Shown piece after piece: positions 48,893 through 62,404 of a stretch of 64,000 nt of DNA (its first letter is position 1; every line of letters starts with the position of its first letter). The translations under genes were made by a program, and so were the position numbers. This DNA comes from Dendrobates tinctorius. Lineage: Eukaryota. The notes beneath the pieces are model-generated. The model worked only from the letters and a program-made list of their open reading frames with translations, had not been told where the DNA came from and did no database searches. The stretch lies in NCBI RefSeq assembly GCF_039654945.1, contig NW_027361688.1, positions 248,001 to 312,000 of the forward strand, written 5' to 3'.

Positions 48893-51425
48893 GACACAAC
48901 TCACTTTAGTTGCATTTCATAGATATTACAAGGATTGGTAACAACAAAAATTTATGTCTAATTATCTTAGTTACTAAAACCATACTACTAACTCAACAAA
49001 CAACCTTGATCCGGTACATAAAACGTAATAATCCACATATGTAGAAATTATTGTCAGTGACATGAATATAATAAGCATTTATCATATGTAAACTTTCTAA
49101 TGTTATTATCAATTAATTTCACCTAATTTGTGCCTATAATACATAGAGGATGAATATCTATGTGAAGCACGACTTCCTTGCACACGAGATGATACTTGGC
49201 GACAACATTTTTTATACATACACTGGAGCAGTTCCGTATTTATAGCAAGACCTCCAACATCGAACCTGTCTGAGATATCAAAACAAAAACATTCAAAAAA
49301 TTTGCATCAAGCAAGTACATTTTTAAGTAAAATGTTGAGACTGATCTCATCATTGACTTTTATTCTTAAACATATTAGATATTTTCTATAGCCAAATATA
49401 AATATAGCTTTCAAACAGGACAAACACAACAACACTGAAGTTCAGACTGGAGGTTACGGTGTACGTTCGCTCACGTATGGCAACTCAACACAAACCCTTC
49501 CCCTGGACAGATGACGCTAACGGACAATCCTCCAGGTAGGGCCACTCTACGGAATACTGCGATGGCTTCCAAGTGAGTGTATCACTTCAGAACTCTGATG
49601 ACATGGACTCTTTCAATGCCTAGCATGGGTTGAGTTTCTTAAACTTTGGTCACACATGGAGGTATTCCGTTTATGACCATGTGATAAGCCCCTCATTGTT
49701 TCTACAAGACTCTATGGAGTCGAGGTTTACAGTTCCTGTTGACTCCTGTAATTACCTTTGCCAGGGAAGGTCACAGACTCCGACAAATCAATGATGCTAA
49801 CCTTTCATTGTGTTGCTCCATTCTATGTAAATTAGCTGACTCTTCCTCATCTCTGTTAGACACCATTACTACTATGGATATTATGTATGCGGCTTGGAAT
49901 CTAGCACCCTCTTATTCCACAATCATGAAGCCCCAAGGGTCTGAATTGAGAGCTCAGGGGTATAGAAGGAGGACTGTCCAGTGACCAAGTCTCTCTTGCT
50001 GCATGGTACCAATTTTGGATCTGCGGATCCGATTGGCAGGCCATAACCCCACATGGATTATAAGACTACATGGACGTCAGCATCGAATGCAAGGATTCGG
50101 CTGAGATATCAAAGACTACATAAGGATGGTATCCAGCTTGGGACAATCCAGTCACCTGACTACAGAATTTGCTGTAGTCAGTCAGCTTCCTAAATCTGGC
50201 ATCATTCCTTTCTCGGTGGGTGCCGAAAGCGGGGTGCTGCTGGCTTGGAGTAAGTAGCCCTGGAAGCTCTGAGGAACGGATATTATAATCCCTGGTGAGC
50301 CAGTGGAAGGGTGATAAACTGTTTGCTGTTACATTTTGTGTTTTGCTGGTTGTGTGATATATGCCATTAATTGTTTGGGGATCCAAGAAAGTCCTAATAT
50401 TGTGATTCCCGCACCCTGTGCTGTCTGAGTAGTGTTCTACCCACTGTTAAGGAGGTCGGGCGTTCAGTTGAGATGAGCCATGGTCCATGCTGTCTTTGTA
50501 AAGGCGGCCGGGCCAGCGGACGAGAGCACCCACTGACCCCCCGTGTCTACACAAGAACCACTATGTAAAGTTAAAAAAAAGGTTAATAATGACGTTACAA
50601 TTACATATAAATAATTTGATGACATAAAACTTTATTAAGTGTAATTTCACACACAAAGTTAGCATCTGTTCAACAACTCTTGAATTAAACAGATTAGTGG
50701 GTTAAGCCCTTGCGGAAACTTCAGGTAAGTTGTGATAGCAAACAGTGAGGTGCCTATAAAATGTTTCACAGGTGGAGTTAGCATATTTTGTGTAATTCTT
50801 CGACTATACATAGAGTTGTGAATTTTTTGGGCAAAATTTGTTAGATTGAGTGCGTTTGATTATGCGCGACATAAGCGATTTAGGTGAATAACTTCTGAAC
50901 TACACATAGAGATGATCTTTTTTTGGCAAATATTATTCAGGACATTGAGCTGGTCATTTTGATTTTACCCACTCTATGTATAATTCACCATACATGAAAA
51001 TCTAATGGCTAACTAATAACTAATAGCTAACTGCAGACTAACTTCATGAAAATCTAATAGCTAATAACTAATAGCTAACTGCAGACTAACTTGAGTCCGG
51101 TATTTTTGCCTGGCAATTTTGGGATTTGCTATCCTTGTCTTTTTTCAACATTTATGGCGATTTATCGCTTTGACATCAAAAGAAAATGGAGGAAGTCACA
51201 TTTCAGCACTGGCTATAGTAATGAAACCAGAAATAAACACCTAATATTTCTTTACAGCACAAAGAAGCTGGTGATGGCAACAGAATCAGCATTGTTACCA
51301 CAAGAGACCCTCGGTGGGGTTTAACCTGTAGCTACAGTAAGGAGGAGTTCAGCTTTCTTTCGGATTCTGGATCACACCCATATTGTATGCATGGGGGAAG
51401 TGTGCTTTCACCTCTGCCTTCAGTG

Positions 51426-53321
51426 ATGGCGTCTGCTGGTCTTGAAAAGGAGCTGGAATGTTCTATCTGTATGGACATTTATGAAGATCCTGTAACCCTG
51501 AGATGTGGACACAACTTCTGCTGGGACTGTATTGATCAGAATCTAAATGCACAGGAAGAGTCTGGAGTTTATTCCTGTCCTGAATGCAGAGAAGAGTTTC
51601 AGGAGCCGCCGACAATGATGAGGAACATAACTCTATGTAATGTGGTGGAGAACTTCCTGTCTACTCAGCTACATCAGGAGGAGATCACCGGGATCTACTG
51701 CACTTACTGCATTCACTCTCCTGTACCTGCTGTTAGATCCTGTCTACACTGCGAGGCTTCTTTGTGTGATAATCACCTGAGAGTTCACAGCAAAGGAGCA
51801 GAACACGTCCTCACTGATCCCAGCACTTCTCTGGAGACCAGGAGATGTTCTGTCCATAATGAACTCTTGAAGTATTACTGCACTGTCGACGCGGCTTGTG
51901 TCTGTGTGTCCTGCTGTCTGATTGGAGAACACAAGGGACATAAGTTGGAGTCTCTGGATGAGGCTTCTGAGAAGAAGAAGAAAAAGCTTAGAAATGTTCT
52001 GAAGAAATTGAACATAAAGAGAGAGAAAGCTGTGGAAGAAGATAGATGTCTGAAAACGAGCAGGAGAAAAGCTCAAGATAAAGCATCTGGAGAAGCCCAG
52101 AGAGTCAATTCCCTGTTTACAGACATCAGGAGACGGGTGGACAACCTGGAGAACAGTATCCTCAGTGAGATCTTCTGGCGGGAAGACCAGGAGTCACTGT
52201 CTGATGTGATCCAGAAGCTGCAAATAAAGAAGGACGAGCTGTCCAGGAAGATGAGGCACATTGAGGAGCTGTGTAACATGACGGATCCACTGACTGTCTT
52301 ACAGGAACCAGACACCGGTGACTTGTGTGATCCTGAGGAGGAGGATGAAGGTGATGAGGACACAGGAGGACATGATGGAGGTGATGAGACCACAGGAGGA
52401 CATGATGGAGGTGATGAGACCACAGGAGGACATGATGGAGGTGATGAGACCACAGGAGGACATGATGGAGGTGATGAGGCCACAGGAGGACATGATGGAG
52501 GTGATGAGACCACAGGAGGACATGATGGAGGTGATGAGACCACAGGAGGACATGATGGAGGTGATGAGGACACAGGAGGACATGATGGAGGTGATGAGGA
52601 CACAGGGAGACATGATGGACATGATTACACAGGGGGACATGATGGTGATCGGGGTGCGGAGCTGATCTCACACATATCACACACATTATCTGCTATGATA
52701 AGAGATATAAATGTGATCTTCTATGGACAGGATCCTGCAGACATATTACTGGATGTAAACACGGCTGCTAATAGACTCCTTATATCAGACGACCTGAAAA
52801 CTGTGACCTGGACATGGAATATGCAGAATCGTCCAGAAACAGCAGAGAGATTCCAATACAATCAGGTGATGAGCAGGAGGAGATTTGCCTCAGGACGACA
52901 TTGCTGGGATGTGCAGATCGGAAAGACCAAATTGTGGGGTGTGGGGATGTGTTACCCCAGTATAGACAGGAGGGGGCGTCAGTCATACATTGGATGTAAC
53001 AACAAGTCCTGGGGTTTATTTAGCGGGATGGTTTTTAATAATCGGTCTGCAGTGAAACAAAACAGTAAAGTGATCCTGTTAACTCACCAGATCTCCAGTG
53101 ATAGAGTCAGGATCTGTCTGGATTATGAGGCCGGGCAGCTGTCCTTTTATGAGCTGTGTGACCCCATCAGACACTTACACACCTTCACTGCCGCCTTCTC
53201 CGAGCCTCTACATGCTGTGTTATATGTATGGGGAGGATTTATAAAGATATCAGGGGGAGAAGCTGTGAGGAGCCGTAAACGTAGAAGAATCTGCCTTGAG
53301 AATGGTGACATCATAGGTTGA
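51426..53321 (+). CDS. TRIM-C: intronless TRIM, recent paralog of TRIM-B, 631 aa
   Basis: RING, B-box and PRY-SPRY motifs; coiled coil nearly identical to TRIM-B; identical C-terminal tail; an in-frame upstream ATG at 51387 is not conserved in frame in TRIM-B. Confidence 0.93.
   Translation: MASAGLEKELECSICMDIYEDPVTLRCGHNFCWDCIDQNLNAQEESGVYSCPECREEFQEPPTMMRNITLCNVVENFLSTQLHQEEITGIYCTYCIHSPVPAVRSCLHCEASLCDNHLRVHSKGAEHVLTDPSTSLETRRCSVHNELLKYYCTVDAACVCVSCCLIGEHKGHKLESLDEASEKKKKKLRNVLKKLNIKREKAVEEDRCLKTSRRKAQDKASGEAQRVNSLFTDIRRRVDNLENSILSEIFWREDQESLSDVIQKLQIKKDELSRKMRHIEELCNMTDPLTVLQEPDTGDLCDPEEEDEGDEDTGGHDGGDETTGGHDGGDETTGGHDGGDETTGGHDGGDEATGGHDGGDETTGGHDGGDETTGGHDGGDEDTGGHDGGDEDTGRHDGHDYTGGHDGDRGAELISHISHTLSAMIRDINVIFYGQDPADILLDVNTAANRLLISDDLKTVTWTWNMQNRPETAERFQYNQVMSRRRFASGRHCWDVQIGKTKLWGVGMCYPSIDRRGRQSYIGCNNKSWGLFSGMVFNNRSAVKQNSKVILLTHQISSDRVRICLDYEAGQLSFYELCDPIRHLHTFTAAFSEPLHAVLYVWGGFIKISGGEAVRSRKRRRICLENGDIIG
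52345..52650 (+). repeat. Coding 30-bp minisatellite in TRIM-C (~10 near-identical units)
   Basis: GGACATGATGGAGGTGATGAGACCACAGGA repeats, encoding GHDGGDETTG. Confidence 0.92.
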
Positions 53322-54547
53322 ACTATCCAGATCTCCACACCTTATGGGCTATGGACACCTCTGATTTTGAAATAATTTTTTTTGTCCTACTGTTACTGGT
53401 GTCTTGAGTTCCTCTAGTGTTCAGGCTGCAATCTTAATTCCGACATTAATGTTTAGACCTCCTGTTATGCAGTTTATAAACTGTTCCTAGTTTCAGATTT
53501 TTCTCTTGTGGTCGTGTCCCTCTCAGTAATACAGGCTGGATGTGATGTCTTTGAGTTAGCACAGCTTCATTCCTGGACTGATTTCTCCTTGTGACTCATA
53601 GCAGCAGAATGGTAAAAAAAAATAATGTGTTATGAAGATTACTCAGAAAGGAAACGAACATGAAACATACGGCGTGAAGGTGTCCATATTATTAAAGCCC
53701 ACACATTTTACCCATATATTATAGCGTGGTTTATTATAAAAGTATAATGTCGAGACTTTTGTATATCGCTTTTTTAGCTGATGTGTTATTCTCAGAATTG
53801 TATTATTTGTCACAAAGTACAGTAAATGCATACTTATTGGAATATTCTGATTGAACACAACATAAAGTTTCTTTCTTACAGCCTGTGTCTTTTTTTTTCT
53901 CTCCTTCCCTCTGTGAATCCAGTGTTACATAGCTGAATGGGTGGTCCTATTCTTACACTGCCAAAACTACATTTCCCAGCAGCTCTTGCTTCTCCTCAGT
54001 GCTGCAGAGCCCTCCCTCCCCTGTGTGCTGCTGACCGGCCTTACCTCTCAGTGCAGTTGGGGGAGGAGGACTGTAATCCAAAGAACAATTGGTGGGAATG
54101 TGGGAGCTGCCAGGGGAGATCTAGAGATGATCGGATCTAATCTTGTAGCTCATAGGAAGTCCTCAACATGGAAGGGATTGATATTCAGGCTGAACAGGGG
54201 GATCATGTACGGGGTCTACATGACACATTTGCACTTTTTTTAGGTTGAATACTGAAAAGATATAGCTGAGCTGGGATGAGGCGGATTACACTAATGGCTG
54301 GCACTGCATTGATTAAGGAGACTGCCACTGACTGTTGTGCCTCTCTTCCCCTCCCCTTCCATCATAGTGTCTGGTTCTGCCCACTTACGTTCTGGTGGGG
54401 TTGGGGTTAAAAATTATGGGACCAATGGGAGGAGGAAGGGGGTAGCACAGCCCCTTCCTGTGGGATATATAGCAGTGCATCCGAGGCCGCCCTCCCTCTT
54501 TCCTCCTGGAAGCACATCCTGGAAGTGCTTGTTTGGAATCACTTTCC

Positions 54548-56623
54548 ATGGCAGATCCCCTTATTGAGGCTCTGCGCTTGCGAGTGCAGCAGGAGTGGGA
54601 GTCGTGGCTCCACAGCGAGTTGGCAGGTATAGGGGCTCACCTGGGAGCTTCTCAGGCTCCTGCTGCTGTAGGGGTCCCGGGTCCGGTCACCGATTCCCTG
54701 ACTGAGGGATTGACCACCGCCGTGGTGGTTCATGCTAAGCAGCCGGAGGCGGTGGGGCTGCAGGGAGGTAGGCGGTCCGCACGGCGCTCCCGCCCTCCGT
54801 TGTGGCTGACAGATGCCTTGCCGGCCGCTGGGTCTCGGCGGCGCGCGGCAAGGCGGAAGTCCCCGCCCCCCGACTTCCGGCCCTGCATCACGGGGAAGGC
54901 AGCGCCGGCTACACGTGTCAGCGGTGCGCGCCGGGTTAGTGGGGAGCCGCTGCACTGCCTGTCGCCGGCCGGGAACCGGGTTCCGGTGCCCACGATAGCG
55001 GCGGTAGTGGGGAGTGGGTTAGGGGCGCGGCGGGGGATAAGAAACTTTACTGGAGCACGGGGGCGTAGGATGGGAGGGAGGCATAGCGCTACATCCTCCG
55101 CTTCTGCGGAGGAACCGGGAAGTGTTCAGCCCCCGGTGCAAAGAGGGGGAGAAGGGAATTCACCCAGGGGAGGTCAGGCTTCGGCCCCAATGGGTGTCCT
55201 GCCACTTTCGCCCCCCACGGGGTTGGTTCTGGTGGGCGGTACTGGGCCCGCCCCTGCCACACAGGTGGGAAGCTTACAAGGGGAATTGGGTCAGAGCACG
55301 GCTTCGGCTCCTGCCGTTGCCGGGGGTAGCGGGGAGGCTTTCTCGGCGGGGACGGCTGGCACGTACCCCCCGGAGGGGAGGCGGGACAGGCGTAGGCGCC
55401 GGAGATCCTCCTCCTCTTCCTCCTACTCCTCTTCCCCGCGGTCGCGTCATCAGGGGCGGCATGCTTCAAGGAGGCGCAGAAAATCACGGCGTTCAGGCCA
55501 CAGCGTGTCATCTAGGGGCCACCGCCACACCCGGTCCTCGAGGCGTGGCTCTCCGTCTCCAGCGTCTGGGGCGTCGGGCACGTCTGTGAGTCCCAAACAT
55601 GCTCTCAATCCTCCTGGGCGCCGGGAGTCGAGGGTTCCGTCAAGGACTTCCAACCTGGCTGCGTTGAACGCACTTCCTGAGGCTACAAGTCATCACAGCA
55701 GCATCCAGGCAGGTTATTCGGGAGCCGGAGTTCCTCCATCTATGGGAGTCCCTCCTCCAATGGCGAATCCGGGTGAGTGTTCCCTGCTGGGTTCTTCAAG
55801 TGTGGATAATGCAACGGTGATTTCTGTTTTGAGAGCGTTGGTCGGGCAATTGCCCCCCGCAGCTAATGCGGGTAAGGAGGGTAACAAGGTTGATTCCTCG
55901 CTTGCCGGGGTGTACAAGGACGCCATGTTCTGCGGGGTTAGTGCGCTGGGTTCGCACTTGGACGAGGATACTAAAGAGAAAATTTGGAGTAATGAATATG
56001 TGGATATTTGGTCGCTGATTGCGGTGGACCAACATACCGTGGACAAGGAAAGGAGACCTGTGGAAAGGTTTGCGGATAGAGTGCGCCCGAAAGTGGCGAG
56101 GAATATGAATAATTGGCTGCAAGCATTTGCCGTATTGGGTTGTGTTATGGGTCAGAAGCACCCGGGTAGATGTTCAGAGTTGTTCATTTATCAGGATATG
56201 ATCTACAACTCGTACAAGGCTCACGGTGGGTCTGCGTGGTGGAGGTATGACGAGGAATTTAGGAGGCGGTTAGCTATTCATCCGGAGATTGGTTGGGGGG
56301 TTAAGGCGACTGAGGTATGGCTGCGTCTTATGATGACGCAGAAACAACCCCCCTTTCCAACAGCGGCCGCTAGACAGGGTTCGTCGGGTTCCAGTTCAGT
56401 GGTCGTACGGAGACCCGGTACCTGTTGGCTGTTTAATGAGGGACACTGTCGATTCTACGGTCTCTGCAAATTCCGGCATGAATGTTCCTCATGCGGAGGT
56501 TCCCACCCGGCGGCTAGATGCTCCCGCCCTGCGGGAAAGTTGCCAGTCAAGCCGCAGCCAACTGAGAGGAAGGACACCGGTGAACGTAGTCGCGATGGGA
56601 CCGTGGTTAGACCGGTATCCTAA
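54548..56623 (+). CDS. Ngaro ORF1 (Gag-like, 691 aa): low-complexity RS-rich N-half, C-terminal zinc fingers
   Basis: Intact ORF; KIWSNEYVDIWSL and WWRYDEEFRRR blocks; CWLFNEGHCRFYGLCKFRHECSSCGGSHPAARC (CCCH plus CCHC-like). Confidence 0.85.
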   Translation: MADPLIEALRLRVQQEWESWLHSELAGIGAHLGASQAPAAVGVPGPVTDSLTEGLTTAVVVHAKQPEAVGLQGGRRSARRSRPPLWLTDALPAAGSRRRAARRKSPPPDFRPCITGKAAPATRVSGARRVSGEPLHCLSPAGNRVPVPTIAAVVGSGLGARRGIRNFTGARGRRMGGRHSATSSASAEEPGSVQPPVQRGGEGNSPRGGQASAPMGVLPLSPPTGLVLVGGTGPAPATQVGSLQGELGQSTASAPAVAGGSGEAFSAGTAGTYPPEGRRDRRRRRRSSSSSSYSSSPRSRHQGRHASRRRRKSRRSGHSVSSRGHRHTRSSRRGSPSPASGASGTSVSPKHALNPPGRRESRVPSRTSNLAALNALPEATSHHSSIQAGYSGAGVPPSMGVPPPMANPGECSLLGSSSVDNATVISVLRALVGQLPPAANAGKEGNKVDSSLAGVYKDAMFCGVSALGSHLDEDTKEKIWSNEYVDIWSLIAVDQHTVDKERRPVERFADRVRPKVARNMNNWLQAFAVLGCVMGQKHPGRCSELFIYQDMIYNSYKAHGGSAWWRYDEEFRRRLAIHPEIGWGVKATEVWLRLMMTQKQPPFPTAAARQGSSGSSSVVVRRPGTCWLFNEGHCRFYGLCKFRHECSSCGGSHPAARCSRPAGKLPVKPQPTERKDTGERSRDGTVVRPVS

Positions 56624-57951
56624 TAAAGAGGCGGCTGGTCAGTTGCGTTTTGGGTTGTCGGAGGGTTTTTTCATCCCGTTTCGATTGCATAGGTCCCCTG
56701 GTTTTTCTGAAAATTTGACGTCGGCTCGGGAACATCCTGATGTTTGTTTTCGACAGGGCTGTGGCCTTGATTAGGAGCGCGGGGGAAGGAGCATGGTTGG
56801 CGAAATCGGATATCGATTCGGCTTTTCGCCTGTTGCCGGTGCATCCGGATTGTTTTCATTTGTTGGGTTGTCAGGTTGCAGGAGAATTTTATTTTGACAT
56901 GTGTCTTCCCATGGGGTGTTCTATTTCGTGCTACTACTTTGAGCCTTTTAGTTCTTTTCTGGAATGGGTAGTTAGATGTGAAGCAGGAGTCAGGTCAGTT
57001 ACTCACTATTTGGATGATTTCCTTTTTGTAGGCCCGAAGGACTCGGATGTGTGTCACAGGTTGCTCGCTGCGTTCACGGCTATGGCAAAGGAATTTGGCG
57101 TTCCTCTGTTTCCAGAGAAGACGATTGGCCCGGTTAGCATTTTGTCGTTTCTTGGAATTGAAATTGATACGGTAGCGATGGTTTTCCGCTTGCCTGTGGA
57201 CAAGATTCAAAAATTGGTTTCCTTGATTTCGGGTTTTCTGTCTGTTTGGAAGGTCACCCTGTTGCAGATGCAATCATTGCTAGGTTTGTTGGTTTTTGCA
57301 TGCAGGGTCATGCCGGTGGGCAGGGTTTTCTCGCGACGGCTGTCGCTGGCTACAAAAGGTGCCTCTAGCCCGCACCACAGGGTGTGGGTCACGAGGGCCA
57401 TGAAGGCGGATTTGGAAGTGTGGCTTTCTTTTTTGCAGTCATTTAATGGTCATACTTGTTTCATGTTACCGCGCCGGACGGCTCAGGAATTGGATTTGTT
57501 TACGGAAGGCGATGTAGTGGCAGGTTTCGTGGCTGGATTTGGCAGACGACACTGTCGGGAGGGCTGGCCGGAGTCGTGGTCTAAGACGGGCCTTTGTCAG
57601 GACAAGACGCTATGTGAGATTTTTCCAATCGTGGTTTTGTTTGAGTTGTGGGGTGAGTTTCTGTGCAATCAGGAAATTCAGTTGCGGTCTGACAACCCGG
57701 GTGTGGTTCGCTGTATCAATCACATGTCGTCCAGGTCGTTGCCGGTTTTGGGCCTACTGCGTAGACTTGCCCTACTATGTTTGAGGTTCAACATTTGGCT
57801 TCGGGGTCAGTTGGTGCATGGGCAGGATGGTTTGTTCTCTAATCTTTCTGATTTCTCTGTTTTTCAGGTCTCCACGGTGCATGGCCCCAATGTCAGTCCG
57901 GAGGATTTCAAATGCCCGTTGGTCCTGTGGGATGCGGTCGGGAACAGTTGA
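56570..57951 (+). pseudogene. Ngaro RT/RNase H with a frameshifting deletion at ~56743
   Basis: RTPV...SAREHPDV in one frame, then FDRAV, KSDIDSAFRLLPVHP, LPMGCSIS and HYLDDF in another; RNase H motifs degenerate (LFTEG, SDN). Confidence 0.85.
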
Positions 57952-58595
57952 TGTCCCTTGTCCGCTCCTCGGTGTCTCAATCGACCTGGCATGCATATGG
58001 TTCCATCAGACCGACCGTTTGGTTGCTGGGACATTCTTATATATTCTGGGCTGCGCAACTTGCTGAGTGTCGCCCAGGTGGATGGCACCTTGGATTCCGG
58101 GATGTGGAGTTCATGTGGAGAGGCGTTAGGGGCCTGCAATGGCCGCAGGTCTTGCCTGAGGTCATTTCGGTGGCAAGAGGAGCTCGGGGTCCTGTTATTT
58201 TGATTCTCCACGCGGGGGGAAATGACCTGTGCTCCTACAAAGTGGCGGAGTTGTTGACGATGATGCGGGCTGATATGGAATGGTTCCATAGTTTCTTCCA
58301 AGAACTAGTTTTGGTGTGGTCCGAGATTGTCCCGAGGGCGGTGTGGCAAGGGGCTCGTGATGGGATGGCGGTTGAACGATCAAGGAGATCGATTAATGCT
58401 CGTGTTTCTAAATTTGTGCGTGATAGGTTTGGTGTGGTAGTACGGCACCGACAGTTGGAAGGGGACAACAGCGCCCTGTTAAGGCCTGATGGGGTTCATT
58501 TAAACGATATCGGGCTCGATATATTCCTATCCGGATTGCAGGATGGTGTGGAGCAGGCTTTGTTATTGATGGGTGGGGGTCGGAGTCCTGTTTAG
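57912..58595 (+). CDS. SGNH/GDSL hydrolase ORF fused to the first residues of the YR ORF
   Basis: SGNH blocks VWLLGHSY, WRGVRG, HAGGNDL and DGVHLN, preceded by MSLVRSSVSQSTWHAYG (resembles the start of DIRS/Ngaro YR ORFs). Confidence 0.85.
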   Translation: MPVGPVGCGREQLMSLVRSSVSQSTWHAYGSIRPTVWLLGHSYIFWAAQLAECRPGGWHLGFRDVEFMWRGVRGLQWPQVLPEVISVARGARGPVILILHAGGNDLCSYKVAELLTMMRADMEWFHSFFQELVLVWSEIVPRAVWQGARDGMAVERSRRSINARVSKFVRDRFGVVVRHRQLEGDNSALLRPDGVHLNDIGLDIFLSGLQDGVEQALLLMGGGRSPV

Positions 58596-59621
58596 AAACA
58601 GGATCCTCCGTGGCGGTGAAAGAAGGAATGGCACGGAATTACGGCTTGCTGGCTGACTTGCCTGCGGATATGGAGCAGGGCATTTGCGGCAAGCGCGTGT
58701 TAAGAGAAGTTATGTGCCTTCAAAATGGTGTTTAACAAAGCACTTAATAATGCTGTGACCGACCTTCACCCATCACTTGGTTTCTGAGTTGATTTATTTT
58801 GGGGGGGCAGAGGTAATGTGTGCGGGTTTGTCCCTGGGTTGCAACGTCTGGCTGGCACTGCACTGATTAAGGAGAGTGCCACAGACTGTTGAGCCTCTCT
58901 TCCCCTCCCCTTCCATCATAGTGTCTGGTTCTGCCCACTTACGTTCTGGTGGGGTTGGGGTTAAAAATTATGGGGCCAATGGGAGGAGGAAGGGGTAGCA
59001 CAGCCCCTTCCTGTGGGATATATAGCAGTGCATCCGAGGCCGCCCTCCCTCTTTCCTCCTGGAAGCACATCCTGGAAGTGCTTGTCCCACCCTCCCTCCC
59101 TGTTATGTGTACTATTAATGTTCCTTTTGTTCTGTTTTTTGTAGTTACAAGTCACAGCGGTAAAAGAAGGAATGGCACGGAATTACGGCTTGCTGGCTGA
59201 CTTGCCTGCGGATATGGAGCAGGGCATTTGCGGCAAGCGCGTGTTAAGAGAAGTTATGTGCCTTCAAAATGGTGTTTAACAAAGCATTTAATAAAGCTGT
59301 GACCGACCTTCACCCATCACTTGGTTTCTGAGTTGATTTATTTTGGGGGGGCAGAGGTAATGTGTGCGGGTTTGTCCCTGGGTCGCAACAGTCTGGATTA
59401 TATTATGCCTCATATAAAATCTAGTGCTTGTTTTTGCGTTTTTGGAGCGGGGGAGGGGAATTTTACTTTTCATTGGTTCTGTATATTTAGTGGGCGGTGT
59501 ACCAGGTGGTTAAATAAAGGACATAATAAGTAATAAGGTCCTTTCAACTTTTGTGGTTTTTAGCTGACATCCCTTATCAAAGTAAGGTGCCATAGCTTGT
59601 TCTCTCTGGTATCGTAGATAA

Positions 59622-61371
59622 TAATAATAATAATAATAAATTTTATTTTTATAGCGCCGACATATTCCGCAGCACTTTACATTTCAGAGGGGATTTGTAC
59701 AGACAATAGACATTACAGCATAACAATAATCACATACAGTAGATTATAACAAATACCAAGAGGAGTGAGGGCCCTGCTCGCAAGCTTACAGTCTATGAGG
59801 AAAGAGGTAGACACGAAAGGTGGGTGGTAACAGTTGCCCTGATTGTATGGACCAGCCATAATGTTAAGTGTGTAACAGTACAGACACAGAGGGCTAATGG
59901 ATGCATAAAGCATGTGGGAACATGATGCTGGGAACCTGGTTATGGTAAAATTTTTGGCTCTGCCACACAGGGATAGGTTAGGTTAATGTGTTGAGGCGAT
60001 AGGCCAGTCTGAATAAATGCGTTTTCAGGACACGCTTAAAATTGTGGGGACTGGGGACTAATCGTATTGACCTGGGAAGTGCATTCCAAAGAATTGGCGC
60101 GGCACGTGTAAAGTCTTGGAGACGGGAGTGGGAGGTTCTGACTATTGAGGATACTAACCTCAGGTCATCAGCAGAACGGAGGGCGCGGGTAGGGTGGTAT
60201 ACTGAAACAAGGGAGGAGATGTAGGGTGGTGCTGAGCCATGGAGGGCTTTGTGGGTGAGGGTAATAAGTTTATACTGAATTCTGGAGTGGATGGGTAGCC
60301 AGTGTAATGACTGGCACAAGGTAGAGGCATCGGTGTAACGATTGGTGAGGAATATGATCCTGGCTGCAGCATTCAAGACAGATTGGAGAGGGGAGAGTTT
60401 TGTAAGAGGGAGACCGATTAGAAGAGAGTTACAATAGTCGAGACGAGAATGAATAAGAGAAACAGTAAGAGTTTTTGCAGAGTCAAAAGTAAGAAAAGGT
60501 CGAATTCTAGAAATGTTTTTGAGGTGCAGATGACAAGAGCGAGCCAGTGATCGAATGTGGGGGGCAAAGGAAAGCTCGGAATCAAGTATGACCCCAAGAC
60601 AGCGGGCATGTTGCTGGGGAGTAATAGTGGAACCACAGACGGAAATGGCAATGTCGGGTGTAGGTACATTAGTAGCGGGAGGAAACACAAGGAGTTCAGT
60701 CTTTGATAGGTTCAGTTTCAGATATAGTGAGGACATGATATTAGACACAGCGTTTAGACAATCGCCAGTGTTTTCTAGAAAGGCTGGCGTGATGTCAGGA
60801 GAAGCAGCGTATAATTGGGTGTCATCAGCATAGAGATGGTACTGGAAACCAAATCTACTGATTGTTTGACCAATAGGGGCAGTGTACAAGGAGAAGAGGA
60901 GGGGGCCTAGAACCGATCCTTGAGGAACCCCAACAGTAAGAGGAAGGTGAGAGGAGGAGGAACCGGCAAAAGAAACAGTAAAGGAGCGGTCGGAGAGATA
61001 GGAGGAGAACCAGGAGAGAACGGTGTCCTTGAGGCCAATGGAACGGAGCATAGTGAGGAGGAGCTGATGATCCACAGTGTCGAATGCTGCAGAGAGATCC
61101 AAGAGAATTAGCATGGAGTAATGACCATTTGATTTAGCTGTTAGCAGATCATTAGAGACTTTAGTGAGGGCAGTTTCAGTGGAGTGTAAAGAGCGGAAAC
61201 CGGATTGGAGAGGGTCGAGAACAGAGTTTTCTGAGAGATAGCGGATAAGACGGGAGTGGACCAGGCGTTCCAGGAGTTTAGAGATGAAGGGAAGATTAGA
61301 GACAGGTCTATAGTTAGCGGCACAATTTTGGTCGAGGGATGGTTTTTTAAGTAGTGGATGTATGATGGCAT
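59622..61371 (-). mobile_element. Young 5'-truncated L2 LINE with an open RT C-terminal frame (378-aa ORF 59978-61114)
   Basis: [26 protein letters not shown] and LHWLP; (AAT)n tail; TSD-like ATCGTAGATAA (59611-59621) / ATCATAGATAA (61370-61380); empty site at ~31237-31250. Confidence 0.93.
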
Positions 61372-62404
61372 CATAGATAACACAATGCTTACGGTCGAGC
61401 TACAGTTGATACCAGAAGTTTCCTTCCACTATATATTATTATTACAGAATGCTGTAGATAAGCCCCTGATGGCGGTGGCCTCATCTTATATACGATAAAA
61501 TAGGTGACAGATTCCCCTTAAGGCTTCCATGTGCACTTGTATCCCAGTGAAAGATAAATTCACATTATATTGTCATTCCGTCAATGAATCTTGAGAAATC
61601 CACATTTTTTTTTAGCTGTATGCAAATGAAGTGTTAAGTGCTATGGGCGGCAGAATGCACTTAACGAAACTCCTCCTTCTTTGTTCAGTAAAGCTTCGAA
61701 GCAATGTGAGCGTATGTCGAGATGCCACACATGGGAGACACTGATGTAGGCTCAGAAAACTGGCTAACGGCGAAGAAGAAAGCCTTTATTGACAATGTAT
61801 TTTAAGGCTCGCGGGCCATTTTGTCAAGTAAGAGAGACATCTATCCATCTATAACACACCGGAATCCTTTACATATTCCTGATAAGGCGCCAGTCCTGCT
61901 CATATTACACTTAAAATACACAAAAGGGGCTAAAACACAAAAAAACCTCCATGCGAATAAATAAATGATATCACATCAATTCATATATAACAGATTAATA
62001 ACTTTGGCCAGAAGCTGAAAATACCATAAGATGATAAGGCACAAAGAGCGTCGTCACAAAGGAAGAGACCTATAGACGGCGTAGGTACAGGCCGGTCTGT
62101 CAGTGTGCGTAGTGCCAACCGGCCATGGAAAATGAGACCCTCTACACAACAGATGTCACGTCTCTTAGTGTTACATATACAGTAGATGGAGGCCGGATAC
62201 TATCGCATCGGGAGGGCGGTAATGTCACGATGGGGGCAGGTTCTGCAGCATTGAGAATCTCCCCCCCCCCATGTGCTCACCCACCTAAACTGCGCATGCG
62301 CTTCTCCTGTACAAAGATGGCAGCGGTCAGTGAATCATTCGGCAGATCCCGGTGGTGGTGTGTTTGCGATGGTGTTCCGCTGGTGGTACCGTGCAAGAGG
62401 CTGC

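Follow-up and report, generated by a model that had tools for sequence, protein, structure and literature searches.

Layout of the Ngaro element and its predicted exons

To describe how the downstream genes of an amphibian retrotransposon may be expressed, we analysed a 64,000-nucleotide (nt) stretch of the frog Dendrobates tinctorius (contig NW_027361688.1, positions 248,001–312,000; hereafter the window), in which positions 54295–59396 are occupied by a Ngaro tyrosine-recombinase (YR) retrotransposon of the amphibian plan found in Xenopus. All of its features lie on the forward strand. Repeat A1 (54295–54532, with a TATA-like GATATATAG inside) forms the 5′ end and is 97.5% identical to repeat A2 (58849–59085), and repeat B1 (58613–58851) is 97.9% identical to repeat B2 (59157–59396), which contains AATAAA and forms the 3′ end. 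This is the A1...B1A2B2 order of split direct repeats that defines Ngaro, with a 72-nt spacer between A2 and B2; self-comparison gave direct repeats only, and thus neither the inverted terminal repeats nor the internal complementary region of DIRS1-like elements. Insertion took place at a single TGG without target-site duplication, as judged from a paralogous empty site at ~31015 (...CACTAA TGG ATTATA...), and the same TGG forms the B1/A2 junction, matching the insertion-site sequence. An open reading frame (ORF) for reverse transcriptase (RT) together with RNase H is present, and family copies carry, overlapping its end, a 320-amino-acid (aa) YR frame with ALRVGEL, KSKTD, HSFRIG and GRW..Y blocks whose homologues bear PF00589; only the first 44 YR codons are retained in the window copy. 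An SGNH hydrolase ORF follows the YR, as in amphibian-type Ngaro, and no methyltransferase match was found among the window ORFs scanned against Pfam. Repeat B1 of the window copy has AATAAT (58739–58758) where B2 (59283–59302) and other copies have AATAAA; in intact copies each B repeat has the poly(A) signal, so that a full-length RNA requires read-through of B1.

The coding region opens with ORF1 (54548–56623), a gag-like frame of 691 aa without a Pfam match that consists of an N-terminal motif with G..W, a low-complexity Ser/Arg-rich half, a conserved core and a Cys/His-rich end. The N-terminal motif is common to frog homologues (G..W is conserved in 23 of 73 under a strict pattern), and the self-association score for residues 1–36 was 0.02. 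ORF2 (56337–57951; RT/RNase H-like, Pfam RVT_1 E 3.5e-08) has a conserved ATG at 56595, just 5′ of the ORF1 stop and 6–10 codons before that stop across copies, and is broken in the window copy by a 209-nt deletion at ~56745, which we rejected as a spliced-out intron on account of ends that are not GT..AG. The RNase H catalytic motifs of the window family look degenerate (57450–57870, and the RT frame of copy L113), yet many copies are 95–98% identical; the end motif of the domain reads SDFSVFQ in this family and ADSLSRFQ in distant ones. Inside ORF1, at 56363/56364, lies a weak phase-1 acceptor-like site (CCTTTCCAACAG|CGG) whose CAG is kept while the residue switches between Thr and Ser across subfamilies; splicing to it might yield an mRNA from which the Cys/His-rich end of ORF1 and the RT are made.

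Downstream of ORF2, the YR frame begins with what we term exon 2 (57868–57999; 132 nt in most copies), followed in the window copy by a hydrolase exon (58000–58595) encoding an SGNH-type esterase with GHS, GGND and DGVH blocks. It gave a weak Pfam match (Lipase_GDSL_2, E 0.0036, short of the curated threshold) and a match to PDB 4hf7 (E 0.029), and a conserved start codon of its own is absent, the open frame upstream of its acceptor being devoid of Met in 39 of 74 copies.

The original prediction, made from the letters of the window, was that a donor inside ORF1 and an acceptor near the end of ORF2 could join the N-terminal half of ORF1 to the YR/hydrolase frame. Both sites are as described. 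The donor, D1 (GTGAGT, 55773–55778; CCGG|GTGAGT at 55772/55773), follows 408 codons plus 1 nt from the ORF1 ATG at 54548 and is thus in phase 1. The acceptor, A1 (57839–57867), combines CTAAT (57839–57843), a pyrimidine tract and TTTTCAG|G at 57867/57868, is likewise in phase 1, and overlaps the end motif of RNase H, the CAG being the Gln codon of that motif. Together they would delimit a first coding exon (54548–55772; ORF1 aa 1–408 plus 1 nt) and an intron 1 (55773–57867; 2095 nt in the window copy, ~2300 nt in complete ones) in which the gag core and RT/RNase H lie. GT..AG ends, a pyrimidine tract and a branch-like motif are the features of a U2-type intron; CTAAT itself varies among copies (for example TTAAC), and in 57 of 68 copies the final YTRAY match before the AG is a CTGAT that lies closer to it. 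The predicted in-frame join stands in that the phases match and the frame 57852–58595 is open to its stop, giving by arithmetic a 650-codon frame in the window copy, but the frame after the junction is composite rather than native, consisting of 44 YR-frame codons fused to the hydrolase through an intron loss at 57999/58000.

In a ranking with a rough weight matrix, the donor is first among the element's 382 GT sites and the acceptor second among its 300 AG sites, but chance is not excluded by motifs of this kind: at least one donor and at least one acceptor this strong occurred together in 33% (window copy) and 40% (full-length copy L041) of 200 simulated sequences matched to the local dinucleotide make-up. 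The splice motifs alone are ordinary, and the case rests on conservation and on the evidence of intron loss.

Intron loss in genomic copies and in a sequencing-run contig

Most family copies keep at 57999/58000 an 852-nt GT..AG piece that the window copy lacks. In these relatives the piece begins with GTAAGG (donor D2), carries the YR catalytic core and closes with a pyrimidine tract between TTAAC and GCAG (acceptor A2); the TATG|GTTCC found in the window (57999–58000) is the exact exon–exon product of its removal. An identical scar is present in a second copy, L051 (read against L119). The window copy and L051 are 80% identical to each other and each has close relatives that retain the intron (97.5% identical for the window copy, 95–97% for L051), so that the two losses are independent. 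A third copy, L213, lacks a 161-nt GTGAGT..CAG piece, running from a donor inside the YR to the same acceptor, that its 95% identical sibling L235 keeps. As a control, we checked 18 distinct internal deletions drawn from the first 89 copies compared: 16 were without GT..AG ends, one was unresolved, and the one with GT..AG ends was the 852-nt loss. Because the element copies itself through RNA, an exact intron loss records splicing of its transcript. The window copy has thus lost exactly one GT..AG intron, and the RNA of the element is spliced. Copy L217, in which the end of gag is joined to the hydrolase, was considered as a further spliced copy and rejected, its left end being without GT in relatives.

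A second line of evidence came from contigs of four public sequencing runs, none of them on record as RNA, which were aligned to L041 (runs X3 and X4 span little of the element). In one contig of run X1 (1359 nt, depth 29), the 852-nt GT..AG piece is missing, and the sequence later passes from a donor inside the hydrolase to an acceptor equivalent to 59144. The former corresponds to a further phase-1 donor position at 58122–58123, which is GC in the window and GT in the L090 subfamily; the latter is acceptor A3 (59125–59144), the acceptor-like tract TTTTTTGTAG upstream of repeat B2 that had been pointed out in the window and that is used in this contig. In phase 1, A3 gives an 18-residue tail. 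A 26-nt motif of the contig matches one genomic locus, L090, which retains both introns with GT and AG at the joints; the second joint reads AG|GTATTAG and TATAG|ATTG there, which explains four letters placed between the two sides of the contig in the alignment. The contig therefore represents either an RNA spliced twice or a processed copy missing from the assembly, and in the latter case too it would still derive from splicing. Its first base is the last G of A1, consistent with a fork there, but the start of a contig is not a dependable feature and is not counted as evidence.

Precise removal in RNA-derived products is thus seen for the YR intron and for A3 (window copy, L051, L213 and the X1 contig): the transcript is spliced at D2–A2 and into A3, at in-frame phase-1 sites. 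Retrotransposition in trans has left a natural record in these intron-less copies.

Conservation of the sites and gene models in other frogs

Conservation of GT/AG and phase, proposed beforehand as a check, held across families down to a YR identity of ~38%. Across 91 loci, 68 of 70 mapped copies have CAG at A1 and 68 of 70 have GTAAG at D2 (the remaining two being the intron-less ones); A2 is CAG in 74 of 77, and A3 is TAG in 37 of 39, with an AG one base off in the other two. For D1, which is GT in 21 of 22 mapped copies, we used 28 copies chosen by their downstream DNA and excluded the tallies for L094–L152, as these loci had been chosen by the donor motif and their use would be circular. 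More distant families were represented by 16 loci (4 of 20 were left out: three near-duplicates and one with the hydrolase only). Here 13 of 15 have a phase-1 A1 no more than 18 nt from where it is expected, a phase-1 A2 is present in 14 of 16 (the region is lost in the other two), D2 is found in 9 of 15, and a phase-1 GTGAGT precedes the gag core in 8 of 15, with four more loci having GTGAGT and an apparent frameshift before the core. At A1, the Gln codon is CAG in 18 of 18 loci, although in the window family the RNase H end motif has otherwise decayed.

RefSeq models of other frogs contain the junction predicted for intron 1. In Ranitomeya variabilis, XP_077154645.1 matches ORF1 aa 1–409, through GAGVPPSMGVPPP to the Gly split by D1, and continues with exon 2 and then the hydrolase; by sequence comparison it appears to be the very protein that had been predicted. 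The Dendropsophus models XP_069812353.1 and XP_069812354.1, isoforms of one locus with consecutive accessions, have a common N-terminal half and end in either YR or hydrolase, the Engystomops models XP_072005003.1 and XP_072005004.1 differ in including versus skipping exon 2, and R. variabilis isoforms such as XP_077154651.1 end in a short tail resembling the A3 frame. Among longer homologues, 26 of 47 hydrolase proteins (one of the 26, a fish protein, resembles a host gene) have a Ser/Arg-rich N-terminal part without a gag-core, RT or YR-core match, and 22 of 28 YR proteins, from 13 frog genera and the lizard Podarcis, have a long N-terminal part without a gag-core or RT match. A fusion of the ORF1 N-terminal half to the RT was not among them: in the 120 best of 361 RT homologues, 0 of the 19 with at least 620 aa had a Ser/Arg-rich N-terminal half joined to the RT without a gag core. 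Many frog RefSeq genes named "uncharacterized", "SR repetitive matrix protein-like" or "FLO11-like" would, if the splice model holds, be identified as spliced Ngaro products.

Several RefSeq models of nuclear factor 7 (TRIM; P0004, P0014, P0031 and P0032 in our set) also end in a Ngaro hydrolase, which they reach through exon 2 in Dendrobates and Ranitomeya and directly in two Bufo species. As read from these models, the arrangement suggests that a host gene captured the esterase exon through acceptors A1 and A2, possibly twice; our literature search found no paper on a nuclear factor 7–hydrolase capture.

Expression of the recombinase and esterase

Taken together, the intron-less copies, the spliced contig, the conservation of phase and the isoform models of other frogs support what had been proposed for the element: very probably, its recombinase and its esterase are expressed by alternative splicing from one shared N-terminal exon of ORF1. 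In this model, unspliced RNA would be both the genome and the mRNA translated into Gag and RT, the latter starting at the conserved ATG ahead of the ORF1 stop, perhaps by reinitiation. Joining D1 to A1 would give a protein of ORF1 N-terminal half, exon 2 and YR (~730 aa in full copies); adding D2–A2 would replace the YR core by the hydrolase (~650 aa); joining D1 to A2 would skip exon 2 and yield an ORF1 N-terminal half–hydrolase protein; and use of A3 would give short truncated forms. As all sites are in phase 1, every combination is in frame. In intact copies, then, the predicted D1–A1 join yields the recombinase, and the hydrolase needs the second splice that is already fixed in the window DNA. 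More speculatively, the shared N-terminal half, with its helical motif and Arg/Ser-rich tract, might serve as a tag through which the two enzymes enter the Gag particle, resembling the role of the Gag part in Gag-Pol. Partly spliced RNAs that keep both ends may sometimes be reverse-transcribed and inserted in trans, which would account for the non-autonomous window copy; DIRS-1 RT can act in trans (PMC7192593), an activity that would allow insertion of defective spliced RNAs.

A number of observations weigh against this reading. Precise removal of intron 1 is present in gene models of other frogs and is not directly seen in this species: the contigs of the four runs contain no D1–A1 joint, contigs of runs X2 and X4 from a related copy cross D1 unspliced, and in the 6.36-Gb genome two exact patterns, which reach only the window family and close subfamilies, gave 0 D1–A1 copies against 90 with the donor intact. 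Among 150 scored matches, six loci with long YR frames were examined as candidate D1–A1 copies, and their 717-aa and 549-aa frames are RT–YR frameshift fusions. The RefSeq models are computed, their read support is not visible, and searches for longer homologues select for fusions. As run X1 is not on record as RNA, another individual's processed copy could be the source of its contig. D2 is absent from the most distant family (4 loci), and the overlap of A1 with the RNase H end motif means that coding constraint could explain part of the conservation of A1. The 55772–57868 join in this species is accordingly a prediction, drawn from conservation and from relatives.

The strongest competing explanation, which we nevertheless regard as improbable, is that the sites are cryptic, splicing reflecting the host's processing or silencing of T-rich transposon RNA, with the YR translated from its own ATG (through reinitiation or an internal promoter) and the hydrolase expressed otherwise. 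The frequency of equally strong sites in simulated sequences would agree with this, as would a Met at exon-2 codon 28 of the YR frame in 54 of 68 copies and the use of several minor donors (YR-internal and hydrolase-internal), which looks promiscuous. However, position and phase are kept at ~40% protein identity, the exon-2 Met is missing in the most distant family, and the hydrolase has no conserved Met ahead of its catalytic Ser. Moreover, the YR frame opens just upstream of A1 in nearer families, with a stop 2–8 codons before the acceptor in 14 of 18 loci (33–36 codons before it in four loci of a distant family), and is mostly stop-free afterwards. We give still less weight to the view that another upstream donor pairs with A1, such that only the D2–A2 and A3 events hold. 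It draws on the missing D1–A1 joint in this species, on a second good donor at 55871 and on an additional intron within ORF1 in one R. variabilis isoform, but XP_077154645.1 switches exactly at the D1 residue and D1 ranks first among the donors of the window element. That the 852-nt loss is an ordinary microhomology deletion, with no splicing involved, is scarcely credible: the intron ends share 3 nt, which could drive a single deletion, and similar microhomology occurs at other family deletions, but the same nucleotides were lost in two independent subfamilies, a third loss shares the acceptor, and a contig with two GT..AG joints and matching isoform models in other frogs exist besides.

Alternative splicing from the shared ORF1 exon may be part of a wider pattern, and on balance we lean towards the following generalization. 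Tetrapod Ngaro elements would run a programme like that of complex retroviruses, with one phase-1 donor in gag and a ladder of acceptors; their enzymes would be made only as fusions to the N-terminal half of Gag, a means of packaging; and host genes such as frog nuclear factor 7 would have captured the esterase exon through the same acceptors more than once.

Retroviruses and long terminal repeat retrotransposons make spliced env or ORF3 messages, in which downstream ORFs are reached by removing gag-pol. The present element would differ in that a 408-codon coding exon is kept and that the integration enzyme itself depends on the splice. Expression of ORF3s from spliced messages is described in PMC5408684. 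In plant Ty1/Copia elements, conserved alternative splicing makes a subgenomic Gag RNA (Oberlin et al., PMC5580714); as described there, splicing likewise balances structural against catalytic proteins, but it produces a short Gag message, whereas in the Ngaro element Gag would come from unspliced RNA, and the spliced products would be enzyme fusions without the Gag core. The predicted doubly spliced product also parallels ORF1p of the CR1/L2-type non-LTR element ZfL2-1, given as coiled coil, Arg-rich motif, linker and esterase (Schneider et al., PMC3905857), in having an N-terminal helical segment, an Arg-rich tract, a poorly conserved linker and an SGNH esterase; the likeness is one of order of parts, and ORF1p is a single continuous ORF.

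The element family itself is known already. Xenopus DIRS-53_XT and DIRS-54_XT (Gazolla et al., bioRxiv 10.1101/2021.08.05.455354) are described with the same A1-ORFs-B1A2B2 plan, with an A repeat of 236 bp (238 bp in the window element) and with the same gag-like, RT/RNase H, YR and SGNH hydrolase ORFs. The four are given there as overlapping ORFs, whereas the present element appears to use YR and hydrolase as alternative 3′ exons of ORF1; the window copy, unlike that description, is intron-less for the YR. The terms "splic" and "intron" are absent from the text of that preprint, its supplements being outside the check, and "splic" is absent from the Cafeteria Ngaro paper. A literature search found no paper on Ngaro or DIRS splicing; Goodwin and Poulter 2004 and Poulter and Butler 2015 lay outside it and could mention spliced expressed sequence tags. 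New in the present analysis are the copies without the intron and the contig with the splices. In the literature examined, the expression of the overlapping third ORF (in DIRS order) and of the amphibian hydrolase ORF is left without explanation. If the splice model is true, the real YR and hydrolase proteins would be ~400 residues longer than the annotated ORFs, which affects biochemical and structural work, and splicing would be a likely point of host control.

Some further arrangements were observed in related copies and around the element. In L051 (7092–7616), repeat A2 continues straight into a second ORF1 start, and L113 (6342–6997) has an additional A–B unit; both could be tandem or circular-intermediate insertions. 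A distant Ngaro family (C68, C76 and others) gave dozens of genome matches with identical scores, which suggests very recent amplification or segmental duplication. In the window, tandem single-ORF TRIM genes (RING, B-box and PRY/SPRY, with a 30-nt coding repeat) lie at 51237–53321, with paralogous pieces at ~13500 and ~27900; the Ngaro element sits 3′ of one TRIM paralogue and is absent beside another. Just downstream of the element, on the minus strand (59978–61399), is a 473-aa reverse transcriptase ORF fragment that, from its motifs, we take to be of the long interspersed nuclear element (LINE) type.

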